A stretch of DNA of 44,605 nucleotides, from sequence record MK759854; one strand, 5' to 3'. Shown in pieces: positions 3,128 to 44,455 of the stretch; the first letter of the stretch is position 1; every line of letters starts with the position of its first letter. This DNA comes from Shigella phage DS8. The position numbers were made by a program, and so were the translations under genes. The notes beneath the pieces were generated by a model. That model was not told the DNA's origin. It searched no databases and saw nothing but the letters and a program-made list of their open reading frames with translations.

Positions 3128-3172
3128 CAATCTACACCACAAAATAATCACTGTCAACACCTGTGATATAAT
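3128..3172 (+). promoter_or_regulatory. putative promoter for major tail gene: motif CAATCTACACCAC plus extended -10 TGATATAAT
   Basis: Conserved motif at 3128-3140; TGATATAAT at 3164-3172; ATG at 3209 with GGAG RBS. Confidence 0.4.
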
Positions 3173-3208
3173 CACCACGTTAGCAGCTAACACAATTCGG
3201 AGATCGAA

Positions 3209-3925
3209 ATGGCTATTTGTGCAAATGATAAAGGCGTTCTTGTCGGTCGCATGACTCGACTATTCCTTGCTGAAGGGTGCGGTGACGCAGTTCCTGATGC
3301 AGAAGACTGGAAGTATTTAGGTTCAACCACAAGCAAAGGTGTTGACTACTCTCCGCAGACTACCACGTCTGAAGCGGATACCGCTGGCGGCTTTGTTTCC
3401 ACTCTCGTTACCAGCTCTGATATGACCATCAGCGCAGAGGTTGAAATCCGCAAGAATGACCCAAGCGATGAGTTTGGCTTCCATCGTCTGGTTGAGATTT
3501 ACGCCACTGAACTGAAAGCGCGTCGCCAGCCTTCCTTGTGGGTGCGTGAAGTAACTGGCGCGACTATCGTTACTGCGTACTGCAACATTACCAGCATCAG
3601 CTACGAAGGCGGCACAAACGACATCGTAACCGGCAGCCTTGAGTTCAAGGTTTACGATTCAGATAGCGTTACCGTCGAAAGCCTTGAGCCTCTGGCATTC
3701 ACTACCGACCTGCAATCAACTGGCAGCACTGGCAGCCCGTTAACTGTTGCTGTTGAGGGTGGTGTTGCTCCTTACACTTACGTATGGCGCAAAGATGGCG
3801 TGGTTGTTGGTGGTGAGTCTGGCGCATCGCTGACAAGTCCTACTGCTGGTGTATATACCGTTACGGTCACGGATTCGTCCACTGACCCGGAAATTATTAT
3901 CAGCACGGCTTGCACCGTATCCTGA
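3209..3925 (+). CDS. major tail protein with C-terminal Ig-like domain
   Basis: 238 aa; GGAG RBS; C-terminal segment (TVAVEGGVAPYTYVWRKDGVV...YTVTVTD) typical of Ig-like domains on siphovirus major tail proteins; lies upstream of chaperone and tape measure. Confidence 0.75.
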   Translation: MAICANDKGVLVGRMTRLFLAEGCGDAVPDAEDWKYLGSTTSKGVDYSPQTTTSEADTAGGFVSTLVTSSDMTISAEVEIRKNDPSDEFGFHRLVEIYATELKARRQPSLWVREVTGATIVTAYCNITSISYEGGTNDIVTGSLEFKVYDSDSVTVESLEPLAFTTDLQSTGSTGSPLTVAVEGGVAPYTYVWRKDGVVVGGESGASLTSPTAGVYTVTVTDSSTDPEIIISTACTVS

Positions 3926-3926
3926 T

Positions 3927-3960
3927 AAAGAAAAAGCCCCGAAAGGGGCTTTATTTTATT
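3927..3960. terminator. bidirectional rho-independent terminator
   Basis: Hairpin AGCCCC-GAAA-GGGGCT (3935-3950) flanked by an A-run upstream and TTATTTTATT downstream. Confidence 0.6.
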
Positions 3961-4150
3961 CTTGTGGTGGATCTGGTAACGGCATCCAGTGAGTAACATC
4001 CTGTCGAATAGGAACAACACCGTATGCGTCATCCCATCGGCCTTCGAAATAATACAGAGTTGATATGTCGCCTCCCTTGAAACATGCGAGAACCTCTTGT
4101 TCTGCATTTTCATCCGGCATCTGCTCACTACACTTAATCCACTGGCTCAT
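3956..4150 (-). CDS. DUF551-like phage protein
   Basis: 64 aa; motif W..C.E.MP...(x)...HWMPLPDPP matches the DUF551 pattern as I recall it; start overlaps upstream stop (ATGA). Confidence 0.55.
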   Translation of the reverse strand: MSQWIKCSEQMPDENAEQEVLACFKGGDISTLYYFEGRWDDAYGVVPIRQDVTHWMPLPDPPQE

Positions 4151-4461
4151 AATTTATCCTCATTCATTTTAAGGAAGACGATCATGGCGGCGCGTAGTGG
4201 GTTTCCATGCTGGCAAATAAACACATCATCACCACGGAACATCATTACTGCACTATTTGTTGCCAACGGACAATCTTGTCCATTATTTTGAATGACGTCA
4301 ATTTCATACTCAACAATAATGGGCCACGCATCAGCTGGGTTTTGGCATGGATTCCACTTGCCAGAATGTATTTCATGCGCAAATGATTTTGAAGTCCAAT
4401 TGCTAGCCTTTGCTACTTCGCAGTTAATTTCAAAATCACTCATGTCTTCATAATTTTTCAT
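4147..4461 (-). CDS. hypothetical protein
   Basis: 104-aa ORF, translationally coupled at both ends. Confidence 0.45.
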   Translation of the reverse strand: MKNYEDMSDFEINCEVAKASNWTSKSFAHEIHSGKWNPCQNPADAWPIIVEYEIDVIQNNGQDCPLATNSAVMMFRGDDVFICQHGNPLRAAMIVFLKMNEDKL

Positions 4462-4601
4462 ATCACCTTATCCTCATCAAAAATCACACCAATTACACGA
4501 AGCAAGTCTTTCGCCATTCTCTCTGCTTCTTCGTAGTCATAACCTGCATCAACATACAGTTCAGTGTAGAAAATCAGATCAGCTTTTGTTTGTTCGTTCA
4601 T
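4458..4601 (-). CDS. small acidic protein (47 aa), hypothetical
   Basis: ORF found by hand below the 60-aa track cutoff: MNEQTKADLIFYTELYVDAGYDYEEAERMAKDLLRVIGVIFDEDKVI; ATGA overlaps on both sides. Confidence 0.3.
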   Translation of the reverse strand: MNEQTKADLIFYTELYVDAGYDYEEAERMAKDLLRVIGVIFDEDKVI

Positions 4602-4804
4602 TTCTTATCGTCGCTCTTAACTAACGCCCAGACGAGTGCTGCAACCCATCCAATAAAGCTCCATCCAACGAGAATATTCAGAACGCAAATTGCCGTAGTG
4701 TTTACATGCTTGCGTTGCAGGGCTACAAAAGATGGTAGAAGGTACACAAATATCACCAAACCAACGAAAAACAACAAAATAACAACATCCATAGCTAACC
4801 TCAA
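4598..4804 (-). CDS. small two-pass membrane protein resembling superinfection-immunity (Imm-like) proteins
   Basis: 68 aa; two hydrophobic helices with pattern ...AICVLNILVGWSFIGWVAALVWAL...; family resemblance is from memory. Confidence 0.5.
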   Translation of the reverse strand: MRLAMDVVILLFFVGLVIFVYLLPSFVALQRKHVNTTAICVLNILVGWSFIGWVAALVWALVKSDDKK

Positions 4805-4824
4805 CTGTTAATAGCTTGTTTATA

Positions 4825-5118
4825 TTACATGCCATTCTTTTCGCACAAAGCAACAGCCACATCACGCAATTGCTCTTTTGTCATATCCTTGCGTGCATAA
4901 ACCATTTCTACGATGGCAAGGCCGATTATTTCTGCTGATTCGTTGTTTTTTGCGGAACCCTTAACTACCACCTCGGCAAGATTCTTGCTGATACCGTTAT
5001 CGCGAACTTCAGCTGTGTTCATGGCGATATCTCCGATGTTTTTGCAAACCTCAGATGTTGCGACAGCAGAGAAAGAAGAAGCTAACAAGACAGACGCGAT
5101 CAACATTTTAATTTTCAT
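4825..5118 (-). CDS. small secreted/periplasmic protein, hypothetical
   Basis: 97 aa; N-terminal signal-peptide-like segment MKIKMLIASVLLASSFSAVA; GAGGTGAG RBS; first gene of the antisense island. Confidence 0.45.
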   Translation of the reverse strand: MKIKMLIASVLLASSFSAVATSEVCKNIGDIAMNTAEVRDNGISKNLAEVVVKGSAKNNESAEIIGLAIVEMVYARKDMTKEQLRDVAVALCEKNGM

Positions 5119-5154
5119 AACTCACCTCATTTATTCATCACTCGTTTCGATGAC

Positions 5155-5206
5155 TTGAATCTACATCACCACCTCACAGGTGTCAACACCACTGAGATGA
5201 TATAAT
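5155..5206 (+). promoter_or_regulatory. putative promoter/operator: motif TTGAATCTACATCACC, palindrome GGTGTCAACACC, extended -10 TGATATAAT
   Basis: Elements read directly at 5155-5170, 5179-5190 and 5198-5206; lies between divergent genes (5118 leftward, 5227 rightward). Confidence 0.4.
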
Positions 5207-5226
5207 CAACATCAGTCAAATTCAGG

Positions 5227-8852: not shown

Positions 8853-12653
<3,801 letters not shown>

Positions 12654-17026: not shown

Positions 17027-17224
17027 TTAATCACCACTGTATTCATATAACGCTTCGACAATTTTTATTGCATCATCAAGCAATGAATAACCATCGCTGA
17101 CAACATAACCACCATCATCAAGTTCGTTTAACTTAACAAGAAGATTGCGTAGCATTTCGCGTTGCCACTCATCATCAAAACTATCAGGAATATCAATATC
17201 CATCTTCATCACCTCACTTGTCAT
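17027..17224 (-). CDS. small acidic protein, hypothetical
   Basis: 65 aa, strongly acidic (many D/E); conserved motif immediately upstream. Confidence 0.4.
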   Translation of the reverse strand: MTSEVMKMDIDIPDSFDDEWQREMLRNLLVKLNELDDGGYVVSDGYSLLDDAIKIVEALYEYSGD

Positions 17225-17230
17225 TGTGTA

Positions 17231-17246
17231 ATTGAATCTACATCAA
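17231..17246. promoter_or_regulatory. conserved motif TTGAATCTACATCAAC within the leftward operon
   Basis: Member of the recurring ATCTAC(A/G)TCA motif family, about 10 nt upstream of the start codon at 17224. Confidence 0.35.
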
Positions 17247-19612: not shown

Positions 19613-20689
19613 CTATGGCATGTCAGGCCAATAAGAGTTGCTTTTAGATCTGTTCTCACTTGGTGCAAGTAATTGCAAGTTATGCCAGCAGTGAAGACCA
19701 CAAACCAATTTGCTATTTATTGGCACTATGTGATCAACCTGCATACCAAGAACGCCAGCCATCTCATAAACCTTTTCAATTAAAACCCTTTCATGTTCAA
19801 ACCATGATGGTATCGCCCGTCTTTTAAGATACTTATATTTACGCTGATGATATCTAACAACACCCTTGTTTTTCTGTCTCCACTGCTTTGACTTCTCGCT
19901 ATGCTTTTCCTTGTTTTTATCGTAATAACGTTTTGATTTTTCATTTATCTCTGCCTTTTTTAATTTATAAATATTTTTCCTGAACTCAGCCTGACATTTT
20001 TTGCAATCAGGACGTAGTCCATCAAGAGATGATTTATTTTTATTAAAGTTTTCTTCGTTCGCCTCAAGAACAGATTTACACTTAGAGCAAATCTTCAATC
20101 CATTACCAAGGTATCTTGCTCTCTTCCCTTTATTACCAGAGCACTTCTTGCATATGGAACTAAAGCCAAGTTTCATACTTTTATCTGCATAAAAGTATTC
20201 GCTTGTAGCTGGAAGAACGGACCTGCATTTTGAGCACATTTTCTCATTTAAAACTTCAGTTGAAATCCTGAGGTTGCATATCCTGTTGTCAGCGCGATTT
20301 TTGTTTATGTGCTCAATTTTCGCATTCCCAATATTATCTCCATTAACATAAATCCATGCGAGTCTTTGCGCCCAATATTGATTGCCATCTATGCTAATTC
20401 TCAGATAACCACTAACATCAAGACAGCCAGCAATATCTCCTACTTTAACACGAGAACCTGTCTTTATCTTACGCGTGAATATCCAAGTATCTGGGTTGTA
20501 ATCAAGAACCTCCCTTAGCCTCTCCTGTGAAATGTGTGACTTTCTTTTGGTTCCTGCATTTTTTAACCCTGCACTTTCCTGAGCAACATTTTGCTTTTGC
20601 AGTTCCGATAAACTCATTTCCGCAAACCTCGCACTTCTTGACGGTGATAGCCATTTCTTATCCTCTATTGTAACGATTAATTGTTTCAT
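19613..20689 (-). CDS. HNH endonuclease with two HNH-type motifs and internal CxxC repeats
   Basis: IEHINKNRADNRICNLR (HNH_3-like) and C-terminal DHIVPINS...HCWHNLQLLAPSENRSKSN; four K-x-C-x-K-C units between them; N-terminal ~60 aa and true start are uncertain. Confidence 0.65.
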   Translation of the reverse strand: MKQLIVTIEDKKWLSPSRSARFAEMSLSELQKQNVAQESAGLKNAGTKRKSHISQERLREVLDYNPDTWIFTRKIKTGSRVKVGDIAGCLDVSGYLRISIDGNQYWAQRLAWIYVNGDNIGNAKIEHINKNRADNRICNLRISTEVLNEKMCSKCRSVLPATSEYFYADKSMKLGFSSICKKCSGNKGKRARYLGNGLKICSKCKSVLEANEENFNKNKSSLDGLRPDCKKCQAEFRKNIYKLKKAEINEKSKRYYDKNKEKHSEKSKQWRQKNKGVVRYHQRKYKYLKRRAIPSWFEHERVLIEKVYEMAGVLGMQVDHIVPINSKLVCGLHCWHNLQLLAPSENRSKSNSYWPDMP

Positions 20690-20714
20690 TGCAAGTAACG
20701 ATTGATTGTTTCAT
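20670..20714. repeat. 20-bp direct repeat (1 mismatch) duplicating the start codon and first codons of the HNH ORF
   Basis: GTAACGATTAATTGTTTCAT (20670-20689) and GTAACGATTGATTGTTTCAT (20695-20714); each ends in CAT, which is ATG on the minus strand. Confidence 0.55.
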
Positions 20715-20761
20715 ACGAGTAAATTACAATGAATCCACATCATCGTCAACAGGAAGATTTT

Positions 20762-21715
20762 ATGAGATACGACTGGAAGGACATTGAACCAAAAATGCTC
20801 GGCAACTGGCAGGCCGCCATCATGTCTATCGTCAATGTGGATAGCAGGGTTTTCAATGGCAAGCACCAGCCATGCCCAAGCTGTGGCGGAACAGACAGGT
20901 ATCGCTTTGATGACAACTTCGAAACAAAAGGAGACGGTGGAGCAATATGTAATCAGTGCGGTTCCGGCAGCGGCATGAACTGGCTGATGAAACTCTCCGG
21001 AATGAGCTTTCCTGAAGCGCTGGAGGCACTGGGTGGATTCCTGAATATGCACCCGCGCGAAAAACTGGAGGCAATCAGGAAGGAGCTACCGAAGATAAAT
21101 TACAACGATGACTTCATCACTGATCAGGAAGTCGCCGCAATAATGGCTAAAACGACGCGTGTCGCGATGAATGAATGGGCGTTGATAAATGGTATTGGTT
21201 GCGAAGTTAATGTCGCCAGAGGTAAATCTGGAGAGCTTATTGCGGTTGAGATGATGCGCGCTGACGCAATGAAGCCGTGCAACGTGGCATTCATTGGTGT
21301 GGATGGAGATTCATTCAGAACGTTTTTCCGCGCAGGATACAACAAAGACTCAGCCATCAATGGAAAACTCACGCGCGGCGCGATAAGCACAATCGGTGAA
21401 GATAACGGGAAGTTCATTTATCTGGTATCTGATTATGCCGACGCGTGGAAGTGCCATTACTTCACTGGTGCTCATGTATGGTGCTGCTGGTCGCCGGAAA
21501 ACATGTGGGAGGTTGTGCGCTCGGTTAGCGATGGGACGAAGGCGAGATTGCGCTGCATAGTTAATTATAAATTTGACGAACTTTGCGCAGCAGAAAATGC
21601 AGGGCTTCCGGTGATGCTACCCGATGATGCTGACACTATCAGGATGGCAAAGAGAATCAGAAGAAAGATTTATGACGCTGGCGAGTTGATAGAAAAAATG
21701 TCAGTAAGCAGATAA
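20762..21715 (+). CDS. putative DNA primase (zinc-ribbon N-terminus, TOPRIM-like core)
   Basis: CPSCGGTDRYRFDD...GAICNQCG zinc ribbon typical of primase N-termini; ATG 20762 has an AGGAAG RBS (longer ORF begins at 20729); only plus-strand gene within a minus-strand block. Confidence 0.5.
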   Translation: MRYDWKDIEPKMLGNWQAAIMSIVNVDSRVFNGKHQPCPSCGGTDRYRFDDNFETKGDGGAICNQCGSGSGMNWLMKLSGMSFPEALEALGGFLNMHPREKLEAIRKELPKINYNDDFITDQEVAAIMAKTTRVAMNEWALINGIGCEVNVARGKSGELIAVEMMRADAMKPCNVAFIGVDGDSFRTFFRAGYNKDSAINGKLTRGAISTIGEDNGKFIYLVSDYADAWKCHYFTGAHVWCCWSPENMWEVVRSVSDGTKARLRCIVNYKFDELCAAENAGLPVMLPDDADTIRMAKRIRRKIYDAGELIEKMSVSR

Positions 21716-23796: not shown

Positions 23797-24069
23797 TTAT
23801 ACCTCGTACTCTGTTTCAAATTTCTCATGAGGATTCTCTGATAACCATTCCTTGGCTCTCAAAACTGCAGCGTTTGCTTCCTCTGCCGTTTCAAACATAC
23901 CAAGCTCATATCTTTTCTTGAGTACCATCACTCTCGCTCTGAATTTTTTCGATGCCTTGTGGTAATCAACACCGTAGTATCCAGTGGTTGATTTTGATGA
24001 TGCAACCCACCCTGCACCACGACCATGTTTGTTTAATTTGCGCTTTAATAATACACCGTGATTGCTCAT
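23797..24069 (-). CDS. AP2-domain DNA-binding protein
   Basis: 90 aa; YYGVDYHKASKKFRARVMVLKKRYELGMFETAEEA fits an AP2 domain; GGGGAG RBS; first gene of the leftward operon next to the control region. Confidence 0.5.
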   Translation of the reverse strand: MSNHGVLLKRKLNKHGRGAGWVASSKSTTGYYGVDYHKASKKFRARVMVLKKRYELGMFETAEEANAAVLRAKEWLSENPHEKFETEYEV

Positions 24070-24165
24070 TTCCGCTCCCCAATCAACTATTTCCCCAAAA
24101 TACTACCACCTACTCCCCAGCATTGCAACACAACAAAAGCGTCAAAAGGGGTAAATTGGGTTAAC

Positions 24166-24188
24166 GTGGGGCAACCAACCTGCCCCAC
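24166..24188. promoter_or_regulatory. 23-bp palindrome GTGGGGCA-N7-TGCCCCAC (candidate operator/origin element)
   Basis: Perfect 8-bp inverted arms read directly. Confidence 0.5.
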
Positions 24189-24396
24189 GAAGTTTTACTC
24201 TAAGTATATGTAATATAATATAATTATTATTATTTGGGTTAATGGGTAATATTATTATTCATATTATAGATAAAAATTAACATAATATTAACAAATGGAT
24301 TATTTGAATATGTTTATAAGGGGATGGGTATGAAATCTGCCCCTTTTTACCCACGAAAAATAAAAACATTCAAATCAATGATTTACGATGAAAAGC

Positions 24397-24419
24397 GTGG
24401 GGCAACCGACCTGCCCCAC
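24397..24419. promoter_or_regulatory. second copy of GTGGGGCA-N7-TGCCCCAC, followed by extra CCCCACG half-sites
   Basis: Identical arms; additional ACCTGCCCCACG (24421-24432) and TTTACCCCACG (24441-24451). Confidence 0.5.
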
Positions 24420-24474
24420 GACCTGCCCCACGGGCAAAAATTTACCCCACGAGCACGTTTTTAACGCATTACTG

Positions 24475-24503
24475 TTGACGTAGAATCATCGTTGATGTAG
24501 ATT
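24475..24503 (+). promoter_or_regulatory. putative sigma70-type early rightward promoter (TTGACG-N17-TAGATT) built on two motif copies
   Basis: TTGACG 24475-24480, 17-nt spacer, TAGATT 24498-24503; RBS GAGGGTGAAGAG and ATG 24534 downstream. Confidence 0.4.
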
Positions 24504-24533: not shown

Positions 24534-24719
24534 ATGAAAGAAGAAAGCACGCACAACATCGACCAGATGAAGTTATTCAGCGATATATGCATGGCATTGT
24601 CACAACAGGTTACAAGCCTGCCTGCTGATATGCGCTCAAATGCAATCATTGATGCGGCAAACATGATTTGCGAGGCATATGCGATGACTGAAAATGAATA
24701 TAAGGCTTCGAAGAAATGA
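24534..24719 (+). CDS. hypothetical early protein
   Basis: 61-aa ORF with strong RBS; first rightward early gene. Confidence 0.4.
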   Translation: MKEESTHNIDQMKLFSDICMALSQQVTSLPADMRSNAIIDAANMICEAYAMTENEYKASKK

Positions 24720-24899: not shown

Positions 24900-25082
24900 A
24901 TGGCAAAGACCATCTATCGCCGCGAGAAGCTGGAGTCGGAACTCGGTCGCGTTGGCGCGCAGAACTTTATGAGCAAGCAGGCACGCAATGCAATGGAATC
25001 TATCCGCGTAAATCGCGTTGTGCGCGTGTTTAATGGTGAAGGTAAGCGTAGAGTAATGGATGAGCTGATTATCGTATTCTGA
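24900..25082 (+). CDS. hypothetical early protein
   Basis: 60-aa ORF; GAGG RBS 8 nt upstream. Confidence 0.35.
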   Translation: MAKTIYRREKLESELGRVGAQNFMSKQARNAMESIRVNRVVRVFNGEGKRRVMDELIIVF

Positions 25083-27355: not shown

Positions 27356-28769
27356 ACGCCTCTCCGCGCTGGCAATCGAAAAGCTGGAGGCGCAGATTGA
27401 TGATGCAATGACAGATGTCGCTGAGTCTGCCACCTTTGGTATCTGCGACATGCAGAAGAACGTCATTAAGCGGTTAAGGATGACTGCTACTGGCGTTGAT
27501 GATGTGACCAATGCAACCACTCATGCCGACCACCTGATTCCAGCAAAACTGGAGCGCCTGCTTTATCCGAAGCGTTTTAAGTTTGTCTACGGTGGGCGTG
27601 GGTCAGGGAAGACGAGAACGATTATCACTATCCTTACTGAGCGAGCAAGGTTTCGACCTGACCGCTTTGCCTGCTTTCGTGAGATTCAGCAATCCATTGA
27701 AGACTCAAGTTATCAGGAATTGTGCGACGAAATAGCGCGCAAGGGTGAATCGGCAGAGTTTCGCGTTATCAACAACGAGATAACGCACAAGAAGACAAAA
27801 GCGAAGTTTCGCTTCAAGGGGCTGTATCGCAATCAGACAACCGTTAAGGGGTTTGCTGGCATTACCGTCGGTTGGGTAGAGGAAGCGGAGAACGTCAGCC
27901 AGACGAGCTGGGATATTCTGGTTCCCACCATCCGCGCCGCTAATTCCGAGTTGTGGTGCTCATTCAACCCCAATAAGGAAACAGACCCAACATGGAAAAA
28001 CTGGATTGCCCCATATCACTCACAGATGGTTGATGGCATATTCGAAAACGATGAAATTCTGATTATCGAATGTAACTATTCAGACAACCCGTGGTTCTGG
28101 GACACTCCACTGCCGTCCGCTATGGAGCAAATAAAGCGAACTGATTACGACCGTTATCGCTGGATTTGGATGGGAGCATTCAACAAGCGCAGCGACGAGC
28201 AGGTCTTTGGCGGTAAGTGGCACATTGATAACTTTGAGGTTAAGTCTGAATGGCATGGGCCATACTTCGGGATGGACTTCGGGTTTTCCACAGATCCTAC
28301 CGCAATGGTAGAGGTTTACATCGAAGAGTTACCAGGTGGGCGGCGCAACATTTATATTAATCGCGAATACGGAAAGGTCGGGCTTGAGATTACCGATACG
28401 CCAGCCGCAATGGAGCAATCATTCCCTATGGCTAAACGTGCGCGATGGTATGCCGACTGTGCTCGTCCTGAAACCATCAGCCACATCAAGCGTTCTGGCT
28501 TCGATATTCACCCGTGCACGAAATGGCCAGGTAGCGTTGAGGATGGCGTAACGTGGTTGCGCGGCTGCGACAGCATCATCATCCATGAGCGATGCAAGGA
28601 AATGCAGAATGAGGCGGCAATGTACAGCTACAAGGTTGATAAGCTGACAGGGAATGTGCTGACTGATATTGTCGATGCATATAACCATTACTGGGATGCT
28701 GTTCGCTACGCACTCAATGACCACATCGTACAGCGCGGCAGTGGAATGCTAATACGGCGCAGGCGATAA
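27345..28769 (+). CDS. terminase large subunit
   Basis: Walker A KFVYGGRGSGKT, Walker B-like ITVGWVEEAE, C-terminal nuclease-type motifs (MDFGFSTDPTAMV, HYWDAVRYAL); ATG 27345 in frame with a longer TTG-initiated ORF. Confidence 0.9.
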   Translation: MARKRLSALAIEKLEAQIDDAMTDVAESATFGICDMQKNVIKRLRMTATGVDDVTNATTHADHLIPAKLERLLYPKRFKFVYGGRGSGKTRTIITILTERARFRPDRFACFREIQQSIEDSSYQELCDEIARKGESAEFRVINNEITHKKTKAKFRFKGLYRNQTTVKGFAGITVGWVEEAENVSQTSWDILVPTIRAANSELWCSFNPNKETDPTWKNWIAPYHSQMVDGIFENDEILIIECNYSDNPWFWDTPLPSAMEQIKRTDYDRYRWIWMGAFNKRSDEQVFGGKWHIDNFEVKSEWHGPYFGMDFGFSTDPTAMVEVYIEELPGGRRNIYINREYGKVGLEITDTPAAMEQSFPMAKRARWYADCARPETISHIKRSGFDIHPCTKWPGSVEDGVTWLRGCDSIIIHERCKEMQNEAAMYSYKVDKLTGNVLTDIVDAYNHYWDAVRYALNDHIVQRGSGMLIRRRR

Positions 28770-28785
28770 ATCTGCATCACCACAC

Positions 28786-28825
28786 TTGACCAATCTACAC
28801 CGAGCGCATAGTATAATCTACATCA
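28786..28825 (+). promoter_or_regulatory. putative promoter of the TerL-portal island: two motif copies and TATAAT
   Basis: CAATCTACACCG (28791-28802), TATAAT (28812-28817), AATCTACATCA (28815-28825). Confidence 0.4.
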
Positions 28826-28845
28826 GGCTTATCGGAGATGTCACT

Positions 28846-29052
28846 ATGCGCAGCTATGCAGGATTCACACAGGAGGAAAAAGAGCAGGTTTATTCGCTGG
28901 CAAGGGCTGGCGTGCCTGACGAGGTGATTTGCCGTCGGTATGATATCGACGAGGATTTCCTGCTGCGCGTTATTGATGATGTCTTCGTTAACCTGCAAGA
29001 GAAGCGCGGATATAAAGGCATCTGCTGCAAGAATGATTTTTTGAGAGGGTGA
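28846..29052 (+). CDS. hypothetical protein, possible helix-turn-helix
   Basis: 68-aa ORF from ATG 28846 with GGAG RBS; segment LARAGVPDEVICRRYDIDEDFL looks HTH-like. Confidence 0.4.
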   Translation: MRSYAGFTQEEKEQVYSLARAGVPDEVICRRYDIDEDFLLRVIDDVFVNLQEKRGYKGICCKNDFLRG

Positions 29053-29063
29053 TGTTATGAGTA

Positions 29064-29336
29064 TTGAACTATTTAAAAAAAGGTCAGATTATACCAAAGC
29101 GCATCGGTGGATTACATGTTCATCGTAAAGCCCGTCACAGATTGGTATTTGGCTGTGATGTGCTAATTGATGGCAGTAATTGGATTGCCGTGCCAAAGAC
29201 TGGTGAATCAATGGTTATTGCTAAGAAGTTGGGTATTCGCAGAAATAACGGAACTTATCAAAGTGTAGAAGCTGCATTTAAAGACATCCACTTTAATGCC
29301 AACAAGATTGACTATGTTGTCAAAACTTGCCGGTGA
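29064..29336 (+). CDS. hypothetical protein (start unresolved; possible frameshift at A7 run)
   Basis: 90-aa ORF begins at TTG; a well-placed ATG at 29057 (GAGGG RBS) is in another frame and joins this ORF across the A7 run at 29075-29081. Confidence 0.35.
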   Translation: MNYLKKGQIIPKRIGGLHVHRKARHRLVFGCDVLIDGSNWIAVPKTGESMVIAKKLGIRRNNGTYQSVEAAFKDIHFNANKIDYVVKTCR

Positions 29337-29356
29337 TGAAATTAACTGGTGGTGAG

Positions 29357-29770
29357 TTAATCATGTTCAGAAATAAACTAAAGAAAATAATCCGCGACAC
29401 TGCGGATAAGAAATACACCAAAAAGATTGATATATCATTCATTGACGGCACTGGCCTGTACAATCACGCCTGTCACCTGAATGCGGTAAACCGGGCGAGA
29501 GATGGAAGTTCGTGCGCAGTGGTAGAGGTTGTGGTGATTGATGATAAGTCGGTGATTGCGCATTACATCAACATGCAATGTGACGGCACGTACATCGACT
29601 ACACGCTTGGCTGGCACTGGTCTGGTGCTGATTACCGATTTGTGCGCTACGTTCCATTTACCGAATGGGCTGATATTGCGGGCGCGCTAAACAGGCTTAA
29701 ATCAGAACTGTGCAGGCCGGTAGCGAAATGGCAGAAGTTTTTAATGGTAACTGATGGTGAACTTTGTTGA
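29357..29770 (+). CDS. hypothetical protein
   Basis: ATG 29357 with GGTGGTGAG RBS inside the longer ORF 29327-29770. Confidence 0.4.
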   Translation, partial: LIMFRNKLKKIIRDTADKKYTKKIDISFIDGTGLYNHACHLNAVNRARDGSSCAVVEVVVIDDKSVIAHYINMQCDGTYIDYTLGWHWSGADYRFVRYVPFTEWADIAGALNRLKSELCRPVAKWQKFLMVTDGELC

Positions 29771-29776
29771 GGTGAT

Positions 29777-29968
29777 GTGATGATTATTGATGAAACGAAA
29801 AATTGCTATGAACTGCAAGTTAGTCATAGCTTTAGTGATTACCCTATCATGATGCTTACTTCATTCCGTGAAGGTGATGATGTTAACTCTATCGGCATTG
29901 ACAAACACCAAGCCGCGCAGCTAATAGAAGTGCTGCAACGCTGGGTTGATGGCGAGGAGATTGAGTAA
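29777..29968 (+). CDS. hypothetical protein
   Basis: 63-aa ORF; GAGGTGA RBS; TAATG coupling to next gene. Confidence 0.4.
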   Translation: MMIIDETKNCYELQVSHSFSDYPIMMLTSFREGDDVNSIGIDKHQAAQLIEVLQRWVDGEEIE

Positions 29969-30153
29969 TGAGCATTTACTTTATTCACGCTGAAGTTCTT
30001 GATGGCGATAAGGTTGTAACGAAGGCTTGCGCCATTGCGTGCTTCGACAATGCTAATGATGCCTTCGATTGGTTTATGGATAGCCAAGAGGTTGCAAAAT
30101 ATAAGAATAAAGGGCGCGATGTGGTAATAGATAAACTGGAAAAGGTGGAATGA
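29968..30153 (+). CDS. hypothetical protein
   Basis: 61-aa ORF; ATGA coupling to next gene. Confidence 0.4.
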   Translation: MSIYFIHAEVLDGDKVVTKACAIACFDNANDAFDWFMDSQEVAKYKNKGRDVVIDKLEKVE

Positions 30154-30395
30154 TGGCAGCCACAATTCTTGCTCTTGTCGTTACAGTGTTCTTTGTTTAT
30201 ATCCTGATAAGAAATAAGTTTGTCTATATTGAGCGCGGCAGATTTATAAACTACTTTTATGAGGAAGACCCAGAAGGGTATGCAGCAGGAAAGCGATTCC
30301 ATAAGGCGTTACCAAGTTACGACGAGATGCTGTGGAGATTCTGGGTATGGCGTTTATCAAAATTCTATCCAGCGTACAGAAATCGCAACAAGTGA
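30150..30395 (+). CDS. small membrane protein (N-terminal TM), hypothetical
   Basis: 81 aa; hydrophobic segment ATILALVVTVFFVYILI followed by a basic/aromatic tail. Confidence 0.4.
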   Translation: MMAATILALVVTVFFVYILIRNKFVYIERGRFINYFYEEDPEGYAAGKRFHKALPSYDEMLWRFWVWRLSKFYPAYRNRNK

Positions 30396-30439
30396 CCATG
30401 ATATAATCCCCTTAATTGGGGATTTTTTATTGGTGACAT

Positions 30440-33140: not shown

Positions 33141-33199
33141 GGTTGATGTAGATACTATGTACCACCGCTCAATCTACGTCAATACCGTTGTGATAAAAT
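33141..33199 (+). promoter_or_regulatory. lysis-cassette promoter: inverted motif pair and extended -10 TGATAAAAT
   Basis: GGTTGATGTAGATA (33141-33154) and CAATCTACGTCAAT (33170-33183) form an inverted pair; TGATAAAAT at 33191-33199; motif-to--10 spacing matches the site at 44426-44455. Confidence 0.45.
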
Positions 33200-35268: not shown

Positions 35269-35699
35269 TATTTATTCTCCAGTTCTTTTGCGCGAATTGC
35301 GCTATCAATGATGTCTTGCAAATCCTGTTCGCGTGATTTGTGTCCGCGATCGCCAGCCTGCAACGCCTTCTTGATCAAGTGCTGCAACGCTGGGTTGGTG
35401 ACATTCCACGCCATGAGCACATCGTACACGTCAACAAAAATACCAGGTTTAATCTCGTGCAGGTATTTGTTATCAGCTTCCGGCGCGCCAATGCAATCGT
35501 TGAGGTCTTTCTCGTCGGTAATTGGCTCGCGGTATGCAATAACAATATCCCCGCAACCCTCAATCACTTCAATGCGACCAGCATAATATTTGCTTAGATA
35601 GAAAATCTCACCAGTCCTTCCTGACTTAACTACAAGATAAGCCGCGTCATGGCCAGCAAAATCATCCTCACAACCCTTCCGATATTCCCACTTTTTCAT
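35268..35699 (-). CDS. conserved phage protein, hypothetical
   Basis: ATG 35699 is ATGA-coupled to the upstream gene; C-terminal FVDVYDVLMAWNVTNPALQHLIKKALQAGDRG looks like a conserved phage family whose name I cannot assign with confidence. Confidence 0.45.
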   Translation of the reverse strand: MKKWEYRKGCEDDFAGHDAAYLVVKSGRTGEIFYLSKYYAGRIEVIEGCGDIVIAYREPITDEKDLNDCIGAPEADNKYLHEIKPGIFVDVYDVLMAWNVTNPALQHLIKKALQAGDRGHKSREQDLQDIIDSAIRAKELENK

Positions 35700-35920
35700 T
35701 TCTCTCTCCACTTAATCATCTCGCGTCGCGGCATAGTGACGCGGTTGTATTCATCAACATTAAAATTGGCCCGAATCAAATCGTACATGTCATTTTTAGG
35801 CATATCAGCCAGCGCCACATAGCAACGGGCAAAGTAGCGAACATCACGGAGTGTCAGCGGCTGCCGCTTCTCCACAATGCTGGTGATAATGTCCATCGGC
35901 TCGCGTCGTGGTCTTGGCAT
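35696..35920 (-). CDS. hypothetical protein
   Basis: 74-aa ORF with AAGGAG RBS 8 nt upstream; first gene of the leftward operon. Confidence 0.45.
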   Translation of the reverse strand: MPRPRREPMDIITSIVEKRQPLTLRDVRYFARCYVALADMPKNDMYDLIRANFNVDEYNRVTMPRREMIKWREK

Positions 35921-35946: not shown

Positions 35947-36000
35947 TATTGACGAATCTACGTCACTTAGTCAATACTGTTGGTGTAGAATGATTCTACC
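35947..36000. promoter_or_regulatory. divergent control region: TTGACGAATCTACGTCAC and palindrome GTAGAA-TGA-TTCTAC
   Basis: Motif copies read directly; sits between the leftward (35920) and rightward (36024) operons. Confidence 0.4.
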
Positions 36001-36694: not shown

Positions 36695-36936
36695 GCGCAC
36701 CACATATGCCGATGATGAATGACGATGGGTTGCTGGAGTGTGATAATTGCGGCAGCCACGAAGTTAAATTATATAACGATGATGGTATGTATTTCGCCAT
36801 GTGTGAGTGCGGATGCTCAAGTGATGTCCACGTAACGAAGTTGGCTGCGGCCACCCAATGGAACACAAGAGGTGGACACCTCTACGCCGCTGATGACTTC
36901 AATCAGGCGGCAGAGGAGCGTGATTATGGACTATAA
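36691..36936 (+). CDS. zinc-ribbon protein resembling Lar-family restriction alleviation proteins
   Basis: 81 aa; CDNCG ... CECGC cysteine pairs followed by AAATQWNTRG, reminiscent of the Lar-family C-terminal A..WN.R signature (from memory). Confidence 0.4.
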   Translation: MSAPHMPMMNDDGLLECDNCGSHEVKLYNDDGMYFAMCECGCSSDVHVTKLAAATQWNTRGGHLYAADDFNQAAEERDYGL

Positions 36937-37414
36937 ATCACAAATCATGCGCGTGATTGTCAATCACCCTGGCGCAACGCGAGCATACATTGAAAAGCAT
37001 TGCGGCGGAAAGCATTCAAGCACCACAACACATCGCCTACATGAGATGCTGGCACTTGGATTCATTCGGCGCGAGAAGTCAGTGATTCGTGGCGGCAAAT
37101 GGCAGTATAAATATTTCATCTCTGATGATGCAGCCGGTATTGATGATGCGATTAAGTGCCATTTGCTTGATAACTCTGGTGCAGAAGTGAAAGAAATCAG
37201 CGCCGCCACTGGCATTGATTATCGCATCGTGAAAAGCCGCATTCGCATCATGTTTCATAACGGAGATGTAACGCGAAGCTATGACCATCATAAGAAGCTG
37301 TGGCGTTACTCATGGCAGGAGCATGAGGTTAACGTCGGCAATCTGTTTAATTCACTTCTTCGCAATGCAAGGGGTCGTCATGGGAAAAGCCAAGCGCAAG
37401 AAGCAAGAGTATGA
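36926..37414 (+). CDS. putative DNA-binding protein (winged-helix-like repeats)
   Basis: ATG 36926 with GAGGAG RBS; two segments with HTH-like character. Confidence 0.4.
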   Translation: MDYKSQIMRVIVNHPGATRAYIEKHCGGKHSSTTTHRLHEMLALGFIRREKSVIRGGKWQYKYFISDDAAGIDDAIKCHLLDNSGAEVKEISAATGIDYRIVKSRIRIMFHNGDVTRSYDHHKKLWRYSWQEHEVNVGNLFNSLLRNARGRHGKSQAQEARV

Positions 37415-37773: not shown

Positions 37774-38035
37774 AGAGAAGTTTGAAGAATGGGTTAAGGA
37801 AGAAACAGGATTTGATTTGTGGCGCACGGAATATCCAATGACTGAATGGGATAACCAGCAGTACAAATGTCATCAAACAAACCTTGCATGGATGGCATGG
37901 CAGGCATCGCGCGCAGCAATTGAGATTGAATTGCCAGGTTCATTCCGTGAGTCTTATCTAAGTTCAAATATGGTCACTGATGAGCAGGAAACAATTGAAC
38001 TCATCGAATCGCAAGGCTTAAAGGTGAAAAAATGA
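37763..38035 (+). CDS. hypothetical protein
   Basis: 90-aa ORF. Confidence 0.4.
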   Translation: MTSREKFEEWVKEETGFDLWRTEYPMTEWDNQQYKCHQTNLAWMAWQASRAAIEIELPGSFRESYLSSNMVTDEQETIELIESQGLKVKK

Positions 38036-38358
38036 TTATCCCATTAAACGACATCATGAAAGCAGGCATCATTCAACTTGAAGATTATGACATGCAGCTG
38101 GCGTTTGAAATCGAAACTGTCGAGCGTCAACTGCAATATGCAGATAAGAAGAATGATCGTATCTGGCATGAGAAAGCACTTAAGGCACGCGACCACATGA
38201 AGCGAACGCGCGCACTCATTAAAACTCGACTTGATAAGCTGTATTTTGGTGAAGAACGCATGTTACATGGCGCTGTACTGGCGCAAATCCGCAAGGAAAT
38301 GCCGATTGGCAAGTTCATGTCATACGTTCACCGGGCGAAACAGGAGGCAGGGTTATGA
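38032..38358 (+). CDS. hypothetical protein
   Basis: 108-aa ORF; ATGA-coupled. Confidence 0.4.
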   Translation: MIIPLNDIMKAGIIQLEDYDMQLAFEIETVERQLQYADKKNDRIWHEKALKARDHMKRTRALIKTRLDKLYFGEERMLHGAVLAQIRKEMPIGKFMSYVHRAKQEAGL

Positions 38359-38556: not shown

Positions 38557-38676
38557 ATGAACATAATCCCTATCACTTACTTTCTCACGCTATACGCACT
38601 CACCAATTCGCCATTGTTTGCACTGGCTACCGCCTCATGGTGCTATATCTCCCTGTGTTATAATTCGACCACAAAC
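38557..38676 (+). CDS. small hydrophobic peptide (39 aa), hypothetical
   Basis: Hand-found ORF with strong AGGAGG RBS. Confidence 0.25.
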
Positions 38677-38695: not shown

Positions 38696-40575
<1,880 letters not shown>

Positions 40576-41648: not shown

Positions 41649-41651
41649 TAA

Positions 41652-41675
41652 AAGGGGGCTTCGGCCCCTTTGTGA
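41652..41675 (+). terminator. putative terminator after the capsid gene
   Basis: Hairpin GGGGGC-TTCG-GCCCC followed by a short T-run. Confidence 0.45.
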
Positions 41676-41689
41676 ATTTGAGGTGAATA

Positions 41690-41887: not shown

Positions 41888-41915
41888 ACAAAACCCGCAT
41901 TATGCGGGTTTTTAT
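41886..41915. terminator. bidirectional rho-independent terminator between convergent operons
   Basis: Hairpin AAACCCGCA-TTA-TGCGGGTTT with a T-run. Confidence 0.65.
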
Positions 41916-41917
41916 TG

Positions 41918-42454
41918 CTACAGACGCATCGGCATAACAACAATCTTCGCAGTCTCGCCAGATGGCGCATTAAGGCAGCAAACGGCGGCATTTGTATTCC
42001 CATTCAATTCAAACTTAACGCCACAGAATTTAGGATTAAACAGCTTCGACACTTTCTCGATATCCACGAGATAACCAGCATTGAAGCCAATTTCCTCTGC
42101 TGCTTTAGTTTCCTTTGGTATCGCGCGGTCAATATCAGGGAATATACCATCAATCTCTTCGCAGATACCAGAACCAACCATCGCGCCAGTTTCATCATGA
42201 TACGTTGCAATTTTCGACTTTGTATCAATGATGGCGTACTCATAACGTTTTGTTGGAGATTTACCAATCTTGATAATCACATTTTCTGTCAGCTTATTGT
42301 CATGACTGCAGCCAATGAATGCGCGATGACCATCAGTTGAGGCAATGCGACCATCAGGCATGAAGCAGATGCCGTTCAGGTAGTAGCGCACATCATTACG
42401 CGCCTTAAATATTAATGCCGACTCAAGTAATAATTTGCTGATTTTTAGTTTCAT
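41918..42454 (-). CDS. truncated beta sliding clamp (DnaN) homolog: domain II plus C-terminal part of domain III
   Basis: 178 aa; colinear with E. coli DnaN from about residue 140 as I recall it: DVRYYLNG, TDGHRA, DG.FPD, EIGFN..Y.LD and the exact C-terminus VVMPMRL; no domain I. Confidence 0.6.
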   Translation of the reverse strand: MKLKISKLLLESALIFKARNDVRYYLNGICFMPDGRIASTDGHRAFIGCSHDNKLTENVIIKIGKSPTKRYEYAIIDTKSKIATYHDETGAMVGSGICEEIDGIFPDIDRAIPKETKAAEEIGFNAGYLVDIEKVSKLFNPKFCGVKFELNGNTNAAVCCLNAPSGETAKIVVMPMRL

Positions 42455-42624
42455 CACTTCACCTTAATCATGTGTTGTTTTGCAACCTTCAGGCATTCTT
42501 CAAAAATGCCACCCTTCTTTGCGCTCTGATTGCGCTTGTAATACTGGATTGCCACATCAATTGCCATCTGGTCGATATCTGGCAGCTTAGCGCGCAGTTG
42601 CTTGACGAGAAAATCATAAACGTT
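42454..42624 (-). CDS. small protein (56 aa), hypothetical
   Basis: Hand-found ORF, GTG start with GGAG RBS 6 nt upstream; TGATG-coupled to the DnaN-like gene. Confidence 0.3.
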   Translation of the reverse strand, partial: NVYDFLVKQLRAKLPDIDQMAIDVAIQYYKRNQSAKKGGIFEECLKVAKQHMIKVK

Positions 42625-43105
42625 CACTTTTTACTCCGTGATTCTCGTGATATCCAGTTGAAGTTTCAGCTTTTTCTCTGGCTGATATTGCATCTTCTTT
42701 ATTGGCAAAAAAACCAATATGCATCTTTGATACATAAGCCCTCCATAACCCACTCTTCCTGTCAAAGCTAACGCCAGTTCTTCCTGATTTGTTATTTTTC
42801 TGCCTGCTGAGATTTCTGTGGTTCTCTATATGGCTCACCAGCCTTAAGTTTTCAATGCGGTTATCATCACGAATATGGTTAATGTGATCAATTTGCATCC
42901 CGTCAGGGATTGGTCCATTAAACATCTCCCATATAATTCTGTGAGCCAAGAACTTTTTGTAATCAACGCATATGATTACATATCCTGTATTTGCAATTGT
43001 CCCAGCTAAAGAGCCACTTAGCATTTTTCTTTTTTGGTGCTTCCACCTAAGCGCCCCATTATCATAATGAAAAATATCACCCCAATTTATTTTAGTTGTG
43101 TTCAT
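42614..43105 (-). CDS. HNH homing endonuclease with AP2 DNA-binding domain
   Basis: IDHINHIRDDNRIENLRLVSHIENHRN (HNH) followed by GVSFDRKSGLWRAYVSKMHIGFFANKEDAISAREKA (AP2-like); ATG 43105 with GGAG RBS. Confidence 0.7.
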   Translation of the reverse strand: MNTTKINWGDIFHYDNGALRWKHQKRKMLSGSLAGTIANTGYVIICVDYKKFLAHRIIWEMFNGPIPDGMQIDHINHIRDDNRIENLRLVSHIENHRNLSRQKNNKSGRTGVSFDRKSGLWRAYVSKMHIGFFANKEDAISAREKAETSTGYHENHGVKSERL

Positions 43106-43914
43106 CACATCTTCTCCAGAATTGCCATAACCTCGTGAATATCAGCAACAGGAATCTGGATAAATTCCTCATCCTCAGCCACCACATGGCCAGCAGGTAG
43201 AATCACGTGGTCTGCTGGCTTCAGTAACTCAATCAGGCGGTCCACTGGCTTAATCTTTTTCGACTTCAGCACCTTTGCTGTGACCTTTTCTTTGCCTTGC
43301 GCCTTCGCTTCTTCTACTGCCTCGTCGATAACTTTAACCGCATCATCGCCATGCTCACGCGTTACCGCTACGGCATTTGCATAGCTGATTTGCCCTGCAC
43401 TGATGCGCGCTTTTACTTCTGCTGGCACATCACCAAGCGACAGATGCATTTGCACGTCAGATACTGAACGACCTACCTTTTTGGCGATTTCTTCATTCGT
43501 CCAGCCAAAGCCTTTCAGTCTCGTGTAAGCCTTTGCACGCTCAAACGGGTCGAGCTGCTTACCCTGGCTGGATGACACCATGAAGGCGATTTTGTCTGCT
43601 TCGTCTCCAGTGAAGTCCTTACACTCAATGCGAACGATTGGTGCGCCGCGCTCAATGGCACGCAGTGCACCGAGATAGCGATGCTGACCATCAAGAATGC
43701 GGATTCCCTTCTCGTCTGGAATAACTGTTAATGCTGGCAATGGCTGACCTGATTCCCAGCACTGCGCGAAATATTCAACGTGCTGCTCGTCTGCTTCGCG
43801 GATGTTGTATCCCGGCTCCAGATAGATTTGCTCAACTGGCACTAGATAGGTTTTGTTAACAGCGATACCGTTGCGCGTTTCTTTGTCTGAATAGATTTTG
43901 CTGAGTGTTTTCAT
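43105..43914 (-). CDS. ParB-like nuclease-domain (ParB/Srx fold) protein
   Basis: IRILDGQHRYLGALRAI matches the ParB N-terminal domain core; ATG 43914 (alternative GTG 43926). Confidence 0.6.
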   Translation of the reverse strand: MKTLSKIYSDKETRNGIAVNKTYLVPVEQIYLEPGYNIREADEQHVEYFAQCWESGQPLPALTVIPDEKGIRILDGQHRYLGALRAIERGAPIVRIECKDFTGDEADKIAFMVSSSQGKQLDPFERAKAYTRLKGFGWTNEEIAKKVGRSVSDVQMHLSLGDVPAEVKARISAGQISYANAVAVTREHGDDAVKVIDEAVEEAKAQGKEKVTAKVLKSKKIKPVDRLIELLKPADHVILPAGHVVAEDEEFIQIPVADIHEVMAILEKM

Positions 43915-43915
43915 A

Positions 43916-44107
43916 TTATTCACCACTTTCTTCTAATAAAAGTTCATAGTTTGCAATGTACGCATTAGCCAGATGATATATTTGCTCTGCGGCACAACGC
44001 TCTGGCACGCTAAAGTCATCAATAGAACCAGCATTGCTGAGTGCATCAACACAATTTCGGAAATCATCCATAGTATTTCGAAACATACAGTAGGACATGT
44101 TTGCCAT
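43916..44107 (-). CDS. small acidic protein, hypothetical
   Basis: 63-aa ORF with GAGGAG RBS. Confidence 0.4.
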   Translation of the reverse strand: MANMSYCMFRNTMDDFRNCVDALSNAGSIDDFSVPERCAAEQIYHLANAYIANYELLLEESGE

Positions 44108-44109
44108 GA

Positions 44110-44370
44110 TTACTCCTCATCACCCTGAAAAATGCCGCCAAACTCTTCTACCAGCTCATCAATACATTGGTCCGCCTCAGCGCAATTACCAGCAGCACAA
44201 AGCAGAATATCAGCCGCCTCATCATCAGGAATGTTGATTGCCGAGAAGAACTCAACAATGCACATTTTCACAACCTGATATTCACCTTCTGTCTGGCATG
44301 ATGCGAAACTGCAAGCGACCGCATCAATCAGCTTGGCTTTGTCATCACTTGGGTTATCAATATCAAACAT
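44110..44370 (-). CDS. small highly acidic protein, hypothetical
   Basis: 86 aa, strongly Asp/Glu-rich; GAGGTGA RBS; first gene of the leftward operon. Confidence 0.4.
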   Translation of the reverse strand: MFDIDNPSDDKAKLIDAVACSFASCQTEGEYQVVKMCIVEFFSAINIPDDEAADILLCAAGNCAEADQCIDELVEEFGGIFQGDEE

Positions 44371-44397
44371 TTCATCACCTCTAACATTTATTGTTGT

Positions 44398-44455
44398 TTC
44401 TACGTCATCACTATAAACACACCATCAATCTACGTCAACAGGAATATGCTAAAAT
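44398..44455. promoter_or_regulatory. divergent promoter region: two motif copies and extended -10 TGCTAAAAT
   Basis: TTCTACGTCATC (44398-44409), CAATCTACGTCAACA (44426-44440), TGCTAAAAT (44447-44455); same motif-to--10 spacing as the lysis promoter. Confidence 0.4.

Follow-up and report, generated by a model that had tools for sequence, protein, structure and literature searches.

Shigella phage DS8 raises the question of what a short DNA word that recurs at the starts of its operons does there, and which protein reads it. The window, i.e. the whole stretch of DNA analysed (sequence record MK759854; 44,605 nucleotides, nt), had been described in an earlier note, made from the letters alone, as carrying a motif of about 11 base pairs (bp) at eight or more intergenic control points, either a promoter element or a regulator site coordinating divergent operons. 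The analysis reported here identifies this word as a real, strongly conserved and clade-specific cis-regulatory element. As far as sequence can tell, it is embedded in reverse orientation in sigma-70-type promoters; a further role as the binding site of a single regulator is possible.

The ends of the record are duplicated (bases 1-128 equal 44478-44605), so that the genome closes to a circle of 44,477 bp; the gene starting at 44487 runs on across the closed end to position 10. Short transcription units of alternating direction give the gene order a patchwork-like appearance. The genome is about 90% identical to the Escherichia coli phages Bas77-80, C1 and S192 and to many Salmonella phages, and its relatives are filed in GenBank under the genera Deseoctovirus, Buchananvirus, Segzyvirus, Macdonaldcampvirus and related ones. 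For the authors of the BASEL collection the group is the Skatevirus cluster, to which Roufvirus forms the outgroup; they describe the group as understudied. Bas77-80, the closest relatives, belong to this public collection and propagate on E. coli K-12 with restored O-antigen. Together, Skatevirus, Deseoctovirus, Buchananvirus, Segzyvirus, Macdonaldcampvirus, Roufvirus and their relatives count more than 200 sequenced members on Salmonella, E. coli and Klebsiella hosts, many of them isolated for biocontrol or therapy. Literature searches returned no paper on transcription in this group, on promoter mapping or on the word itself.

A conserved word between the genes

In full, the element reads tSAATCTACRYCAa, the flanks extending the core; it is asymmetric and 11-14 bp long. 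Its reverse complement, tTGRYGTAGATTsa (TTGRYGTAGATT), joins a -35-like hexamer (TTGACG or TTGATG) without a gap to a -10-like one (TAGATT), and the -35-like TTGACG that the earlier note had seen on the opposite strand was correctly recognized. The core TCTAC[AG][TC]CA occurs 12 times in the circular genome, where about 0.3-0.6 copies are expected: at 3131, 5160, 17237, 28817, 33173, 35957, 44399 and 44429 on the plus strand and at 24476, 24493, 33144 and 35981 on the minus strand. Each of the eight intervals named earlier holds at least one core copy. With up to one mismatch, ATCTACGTCAA gave 7 matches against 0.58 expected, and none of 100 dinucleotide-preserving shuffles reached 7. In an unbiased k-mer screen under a second-order Markov model, two words ranked near the top for over-representation, TCTACGTCA with 5 occurrences for an expected 0.12 and ATCTACATCA with 5 for an expected 0.07. 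A scan with a position weight matrix (PWM) and shuffled controls, which had been proposed as a check, returned 15 hits at a score of at least 14 against 0.82 in the shuffles, and the enrichment stands. The scan added degenerate copies at 20732 (AATCCACATCA), 28769 (AATCTGCATCA) and 28792 (AATCTACACCG).

The DNA outside the curated gene list makes up 8.8% of the genome and holds all 12 strict copies (P about 2e-13), which bears out the claimed intergenic placement; one of the copies overlaps a stop codon by 3 nt. The two halves of the word are coupled. In all 10 intergenic occurrences of ATCTAC the hexamer is followed by RYC and then by A (once by G), and in none of the 4 genic occurrences is this the case. 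Direct and inverted pairs, also claimed before, are common. Direct pairs are formed by 24476/24493 (17 bp apart) and 44399/44429 (30 bp apart), a triple by 28769/28792/28815 at 23 bp, and inverted pairs by 33144/33173 and 35957/35981. Pairing is thus usual and its spacing variable (direct 10, 17, 21, 23, 25 and 30 bp; inverted 26 and 29 bp). Within the word itself only T..ACGT..A is self-complementary, and the centre varies between CG, CA and AC.

The word as part of sigma-70-type promoters

Read in reverse orientation, 7 of the 12 strict copies pair with a sigma-70 partner hexamer 16-18 bp away, and 6 of these 7 face an early-type gene or RNA. TAGATT takes the place of the -10 hexamer at 3129, 5158 and 24498, as well as at 17235 with a weaker partner, and TTGACG that of the -35 hexamer at 24475, 33177 and 44433. 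A -35 hexamer matching at least 5 of 6 positions was found 16-18 bp 5' of TAGATT for 4 of the 12 copies, compared with 2% of control positions, and a -10 hexamer exactly 17 bp 3' of TTGACG for 3 of the 12, compared with 6% of controls. When the 12 strict copies and the degenerate copy at 20732 were counted by our own reading of the site lists, 11 of these 13 faced a co-oriented gene start 26-76 nt away or, at 3129, a non-coding RNA region; copies 28792 and 28815 face no suitably placed gene start or RNA. The -35-type copies always carry TTGACG, and the -10-type copies are looser in that half (GTGATG, GTGGTG, GTGACG). The word also holds a TG three bases 5' of TAGATT (TG-RYG-TAGATT), which is not the extended -10 position, so that the word itself is no classical extended -10. 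A -10 hexamer in the forward direction (nnnAAT) was considered as well and rejected, as the PWM has T instead of A at position -4 and A-11 would be missing.

The clearest leftward examples lie in the left part of the genome. At 3129-3157 (minus strand) the promoter TTGACA-17-TAGATT matches 10 of 12 consensus positions and faces a non-coding stretch of about 740 nt (2390-3122); its -10 is the reverse complement of the motif copy at 3129-3139 (plus strand, AATCTACACCA), which is invariant in 7 genomes. In the relatives L004 and L007 the spacer is almost wholly different, with TTGACA, the 17-bp distance and TGGTGTAGATT kept. Relatives have tRNA genes in the stretch that this promoter faces, on the same strand, and in L004 and L008 they are annotated. 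A second TTGACA-17-TAGATT (5158-5186, minus strand; 10 of 12) serves the operon 5118-3956, which encodes NinX-like, DUF551 and other small proteins according to Pfam. It includes the alignment-conserved core copy at 5158-5168 (plus strand, AATCTACATCA), and in L004, L007 and L008 the alignment reads TTGACA-18-TAGATT. The copy at 17235-17245 (plus strand) provides a TAGATT -10 with TTGCCT 17 bp upstream, which in relatives is TTGATG-17-TAGATT. This copy lies between two leftward genes and makes sense only in reverse orientation.

In the middle of the genome the primase promoter TTGATT-17-TACAAT (20702-20742, plus strand) has the degenerate copy AATCCACATCA at 20732-20742 over its start site, where relatives carry the full copy AATCTACATCA. 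The two minus-strand copies at 24475-24485 and 24492-24503, 17 bp apart, together form TTGACG-17-TAGATT on the plus strand (24475>24503), facing the gene at 24534. Three plus-strand copies 23 bp apart (28769-28825; those at 28769 and 28792 degenerate, that at 28815 full) lie upstream of, in the spacer of and over the -10/+1 region of a rightward promoter TTGACC-17-TAGTAT (28786-28814); the sigma-70 scan also picks GTGACA-18-TAGATT at 28844>28815.

Further to the right, the leftward promoter TTGACG-17-CATAGT (33154-33182, minus strand) takes its -35 from the reverse complement of the copy at 33171-33182, and a minus-strand copy (33143-33154; TTGATGTAGATA on the plus strand) follows just 3' of its -10. 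An inverted pair, 35955-35965 (plus) and 35980-35991 (minus), flanks the conserved sequence TTAGTCAATACT, with TAGATT and TAGAAT facing outward 26-34 nt from the gene starts at 35920 (leftward) and 36018 (rightward). Finally, the anti-restriction/ParB-like/RusA operon is served by the leftward promoter TTGACG-17-TATAGT (44410-44438, minus strand; 10 of 12). The copy at 44427-44438, read as its reverse complement, supplies the -35 of this promoter, whose hexamers and spacing are invariant in 9 genomes, and another copy (44398-44407, plus strand, TTCTACGTCA) covers about +3 to +13.

The promoter regions are paralogous beyond the 12-mer, with 70-92% identity over 25-68 nt (5144-5168/24493-24517, 3129-3172/5158-5201, 33154-33201/44410-44457 and 24452-24519/44394-44461). 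The promoters at 5158 and 24503 are alike through their first 16 or so transcribed bases (CAAGTCATCGAAAC). In Salmonella phage SB28 (L009) a homing-endonuclease gene has been inserted (28316-29986, minus strand). With it came, in the adjoining stretch 29990-30060, a pair of motif copies (30002 and 30023) and an extended -10 (TGATACAAT) that serves the tail-fibre gene. Promoter modules with the word thus move together with cassettes. Such observations could mean that the promoter word serves mainly as microhomology for cassette swapping, like the PeSL elements of T4-type phages. Copies do flank variable cassettes, as in SB28, and the small-gene blocks that adjoin motif regions differ between relatives. 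However, 11-14 bp is short for homologous exchange, the exact 17-bp sigma-70 partnerships point to transcription as the primary constraint, and mobility could be a side effect of shared promoters instead of their function. We regard this explanation as very improbable.

Conservation across relatives

The word was found at orthologous intergenic sites, with 12-16 copies per genome, in 8 relatives of the Skatevirus/Roufvirus cluster, i.e. five enterobacterial phages (L001, L002, L003, L005, L009) and three of the Klebsiella/Roufvirus type (L004, L007, L008), whose portal is about 70% identical to that of DS8. Two phages that are further removed lack it, namely Yersinia phage P400, with a portal of 53% identity, and E. 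coli phage ep3. Across five regulatory regions in 7-9 genomes, 66 of 88 motif columns were invariant, compared with 131 of 329 other intergenic columns (Fisher P = 4e-9); the latter include partner hexamers and ribosome-binding sites, which makes the contrast conservative. Where protein identity is down to about 70%, relatives still keep the partner hexamers and the 17-bp spacing, although the spacer sequences have diverged. The TG three bases 5' of TAGATT is retained at every -10-type copy, and no variation is seen in the 14-bp block TCAATCTACGTCAA at 44425-44438 and 33169-33182, two sites that use TTGACG alone. The PWM is the same in all three subclades, and a search for co-variation of motif variants with alleles of candidate proteins consequently had nothing to correlate. 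A scan of IMG/VR for paired copies was swamped by chance matches. In Yersinia phage P400 an enriched word, GAAGTTGA, was considered as an analogous element and discarded as coding DNA for Glu-Val-Asp/Glu codons.

Extended -10 promoters back-to-back with the word

The opposite strand at several of these sites carries promoters of another kind. Extended -10 sequences on the plus strand, the first of them without a -35 hexamer, precede the major tail gene at 3209 (3164-3172, TGATATAAT), the tape-measure/tail operon (5198-5206, TGATATAAT), the lysis cassette (33191-33199, TGATAAAAT) and the rightward lipoprotein/tail-completion operon (44447-44455, TGCTAAAAT). No full copy of the word lies near a further true extended -10 promoter at 38656, which precedes the head genes (real start 38696). 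At 12651, where another one precedes the tail fibre, the PWM found no more than a weak match (score 13) immediately 3' of the -10. Another perfect extended -10 (TGATATAAT; 30399-30424) overlaps the stop of the gene 30150-30395 and leads directly into a terminator-like hairpin with a T-run, just 5' of the portal gene.

The earlier note had emphasised the forward orientation. Developed into an activator-box model, this would place the word around -33 to -23 of -35-less extended -10 promoters, where it would recruit RNA polymerase for late genes through a phage activator, much as MotA does in T4. The identical spacing that the note described at 33172 and 44428 (motif, 8 nt, TGnTAAAAT) is indeed there. 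More broadly, TGnTAWAAT follows TCTACGTCA after 11-13 nt at 33173 and 44429, at the tail-fibre gene of SB28 and, in a looser form, at 24476 on the minus strand. The spacing is like that in T4, where 11-13 bp separate the MotA box from the -10. The arrangement is nevertheless confined to 2-4 of about 12 loci across all genomes, and even at 33173 and 44429 subclades differ by 1 nt in the gap. The extended -10 promoters at 3164 and 5198 have their full copy 27-32 nt 5' of the -10, a distance that varies by 4-10 nt in relatives. Given this variable spacing, the missing copy at 38656 and the weak match at 12651, the word is not a general upstream element of late promoters. The copy at 17237 would moreover point against both neighbouring genes, and a domain-level Pfam search detected no MotA-, AsiA- or sigma-like domain in the roughly 55 DS8 proteins scanned. 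An activator box is accordingly improbable. The general idea of a promoter element or regulator site at divergent operons survives, with the orientation reversed, as it is the reverse complement that fits core promoters. The extended -10 promoters look like independent, -35-less promoters of structural and lysis operons that stand back-to-back with the motif-bearing ones.

Evidence for a possible second reader

Could RNA polymerase with sigma-70 alone account for the word? It would then be a favoured -35/-10 combination, spread by duplication of promoter cassettes and without a separate reader, in which TGRYG forms an unusual upstream extension of the -10. Both halves match hexamers, with T-12, A-11 and T-7 all present, and the partner hexamers at the right spacing in 7 of 12 copies agree with it. 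So do the constant TTGACG of the -35-type copies, the looser state of that half in -10-type copies, the invariance across subclades expected for an invariant host reader, and the paralogy of promoter regions over 25-68 nt. Other features fit this explanation poorly. The TG of the word would lie at -17/-16 and not at -15/-14, where sigma-70 extended -10 promoters have it. Conservation is equally strong in the half that sigma-70 requires and in the half that it could do without; at 44427-44438 and 33171-33182 the unused half is invariant in 9 genomes. Several copies lie off the promoter hexamers, at about +3 to +13 (44398), 3' of the -10 (33143) or in the spacer (28792), and those at 28815 and 20732 lie over -10/+1 in the orientation opposite to the local promoter. 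We therefore consider sigma-70 alone an unlikely explanation, albeit one that carries real weight.

Copies of the word, usually paired, are found in either orientation all over the RNA polymerase footprint. Sites scattered in this way are typical of repressor operators and not of an activator box. Since both halves are conserved and copies occur throughout the footprint, in both orientations and in pairs, we infer that the word may be the operator of one trans-acting factor. In this interpretation it would combine core promoter hexamers with the binding site of one DNA-binding protein that occludes these promoters. We give this explanation slightly less than an even chance. The putative regulator would probably be a repressor of early promoters.

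As regards mechanism, the protein would bind the word and occlude the motif-bearing, early-type promoters, which could amount to a genome-wide shut-off of, or a feedback on, early transcription. Binding would also clear the overlapping -35-less extended -10 promoters at 3129-3172, 5158-5206, 33143-33199 and 44398-44455, which would drive the major tail, tape-measure, lysis and tail-completion operons. Motif-type promoters head units for anti-restriction, ParB-like, RusA, NinX/DUF551, Erf plus exonuclease, helicase, primase and Lar proteins and many small ORFans, and those of the extended -10 kind stand before the operons for the major tail, tape-measure, lysis, head and tail-completion functions.

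Candidate DNA-binding proteins

Phyletic profiling of the 8 motif-positive against the 2 motif-negative genomes left seven proteins that fit the pattern, namely those encoded at 36926-37414, 38032-38358, 24900-25082 (DUF7540), 28846-29052, 35696-35920 and 4825-5118, and Lar. The only recognized DNA-binding fold among them is that of the 162-aa basic protein at 36926-37414 (plus strand), which is present in 8 of 8 motif-positive and 0 of 2 motif-negative relatives. It has a weak Pfam MarR_2 hit and belongs to PHROG 1687, annotated as 'MarR family regulator'. Its AlphaFold2 model (pLDDT 83, pTM 0.72) shows two tandem winged-helix domains, for which a fold search retrieved only generic tandem winged-helix proteins (RPC62, SelB, TFIIE, ScpB, MarR; TM 0.3-0.44). 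The family is confined to the clade, with 8 hits among 1.84 billion representatives, and in the second recognition helix I101, K103, R105 and R107 are kept in all homologues. Judging from the model, an asymmetric site of 12-14 bp would be well matched by a monomer that carries two winged helices. This protein is the best candidate for the reader. A sequence search of four small conserved proteins against the PDB gave no significant match.

Of the binders proposed in the earlier note, this winged-helix protein is the one that survives as a candidate. The AP2-domain protein (23797-24069) occurs in only 3 of the 8 motif-positive relatives. For the helix-turn-helix (HTH)-like protein at 28846-29052, AlphaFold2 gave a small three-helix model without a significant fold match (best hits to NarL/GerE-type domains, E about 1), and its would-be recognition helix, YDIDEDFLLRV, is invariant and acidic. 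A ParB/KorB-like protein (43105-43926, minus strand; HTH_ParB and KorB Pfam domains) was considered as reader on account of these domains and its 80-98% conservation, and was rejected. Identity reaches 97-99% among the Salmonella and E. coli relatives and 80% in the Klebsiella phages, and the gene is deleted in SB28 and VLCpiS13d, which keep 12-15 copies of the word. The target site of this protein is not the motif studied here.

Several points weigh against a phage repressor as reader of the word. Gene content is the sole basis for dividing the promoters into early and late classes. Three subclades share an identical PWM, although the candidate winged-helix protein is only 37-47% identical between them, and the first recognition helix of that protein varies among homologues. 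Other clade-wide small proteins (38032-38358, 24900-25082, 35696-35920, 28846-29052 and 4825-5118) share its phyletic pattern. The varied positions and orientations of the copies could reflect promoter duplication, as the repeats D2, D11, I1 and I6 represent paralogous promoter regions. An invariant site also fits an invariant reader, be it host sigma-70 or a host factor, at least as well.

A host factor would be a conserved enterobacterial DNA-binding protein that reads the word and times or boosts the phage promoters. In its favour, the motif is identical in Escherichia, Salmonella and Klebsiella phages despite diverging phage proteins, none of which stands out as equally conserved. To our knowledge, however, the word matches no consensus of an enterobacterial regulator (CRP, FNR, IHF, DnaA, NarL, CpxR, PhoB, MetJ, EvgA or MarA were considered), and it is absent from Yersinia phage P400 and E. 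coli phage ep3. There is little probability in this alternative. The proposal of a phage repressor can also be taken further. The 12-mer might be a universal promoter-and-operator module that works in either register, and the monomeric, clade-restricted tandem winged-helix protein might, by occupying the -35 or -10 of about nine early promoters simultaneously, flip at least four back-to-back early/late pairs as a whole-genome temporal switch in a virulent siphovirus without its own sigma factor or RNA polymerase. This far-reaching version appears quite unlikely.

For the phage group, the motif maps about nine promoter regions. It suggests an early/late layout in which canonical, word-bearing promoters lie back-to-back with -35-less extended -10 promoters, and the analysis provides a short list of candidate regulators. 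If a single factor does read the word, the element would offer a compact handle for engineering or silencing these phages.

Neighbouring regions of the genome

Between a bidirectional terminator (2371-2385) and the major tail gene lie about 840 nt (2366-3208) with no convincing open reading frame (ORF) on either strand. Pieces of this region (2497-2622, 2611-2692 and 2926-3235) match unannotated DNA of unrelated phages at 78-99% identity, among them Ackermannviridae (Det7, Cba120, Marshall), Klebsiella phage Magnus, FSL SP-058, ECBP1 and a 'Campylobacter' phage record. Searches of the region for tRNAs and for Rfam hits above the gathering threshold were negative. Weak tmRNA-like hits occur on the minus strand at 2984-3141 (E about 0.002), and the predicted fold is no more stable than that of shuffles (z = 0.06). 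The region may be what is left of a tRNA region after decay, or else a non-coding segment that is mobile.

The segment 24070-24470 resembles a replication origin and adjoins the operon of the DUF3987 primase-helicase. Its strongly AT-rich core (about 24200-24300) is flanked by two copies of a 26-nt GC hairpin (24165-24190 and 24396-24421; CGTGGGGCA...TGCCCCACG), and further CCCCACG and GGGGTAAATT repeats are present.

Some longest-ORF starts are probably too far upstream. To judge from relatives and ribosome-binding sites, the 471-aa head protein would start at 38696 instead of 38618, the primase at 20762 instead of 20729, and the 65-aa ORF not at 17224 but at a later ATG near 17209. Two HNH_3 endonuclease genes are found on the minus strand (19613-20689 and 42614-43108). 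The first lies between helicase and primase and is missing there in the closest relatives, consistent with a homing-endonuclease insertion.

Comparison with known systems

Several known systems share parts of this arrangement. The PeSL elements of T4-type phages are mobile early-promoter cassettes that include a stem-loop. As in DS8, near-identical early-promoter sequences surround variable small-gene cassettes, whereas no stem-loop is associated with the DS8 word. The KorB regulon of plasmid RK2 (12 OB sites) resembles DS8 in having about a dozen copies of one site near the promoters of a small replicon, and DS8 encodes a protein with a ParB/KorB-type HTH. OB, however, is a 13-bp palindrome and the DS8 word is asymmetric, and DS8-type sites persist in SB28 and VLCpiS13d, where the ParB/KorB-like gene is missing. 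In T4 middle promoters, which depend on MotA and AsiA, a box near -30 replaces the -35 before a good, often extended -10, and the loci at 33173 and 44429 look alike. The T4 box (TGCTTtA) nevertheless differs in sequence from the DS8 word and stands at a fixed position near -30, whereas most DS8 copies are not at -30 of any promoter, the exceptions being 2-4 loci.

The stoperators of mycobacteriophages L5 and Bxb1 are asymmetric sites of about 13 bp with many copies in short intergenic regions, include a -35-like TTGACA, overlap the early promoter and are bound by one phage protein (gp71/gp69). The DS8 word is likewise an asymmetric, multi-copy intergenic site that overlaps the -35 of early promoters. 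L5 and Bxb1 are temperate, their protein being the immunity repressor; in the relatives of DS8 that were fetched, no integrase or CI-like repressor is annotated. Furthermore, the L5 sites have one orientation and block elongation between genes, whereas the DS8 copies lie at promoters in both orientations, and only 17237 and 28769-28825 lie between co-directional genes. The cognate repressor of L5 is known; for DS8 there are candidate binders.

The p4 switch of phage phi29 acts on the divergent early promoters A2b/A2c and the late promoter A3. There, early promoters with a -35 overlap a -35-less late promoter back-to-back, as the putative early and late promoters of DS8 do, and one regulator site over the early -35 could similarly shut early and favour late transcription. 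The p4 site differs in being an inverted repeat in one region per genome, whereas the DS8 word is asymmetric and present in about nine regions, and no p4 homologue was detected. By analogy, the element would come closest in behaviour to the multi-copy asymmetric operators of L5 and, in consequence, to the early/late switch of phi29.

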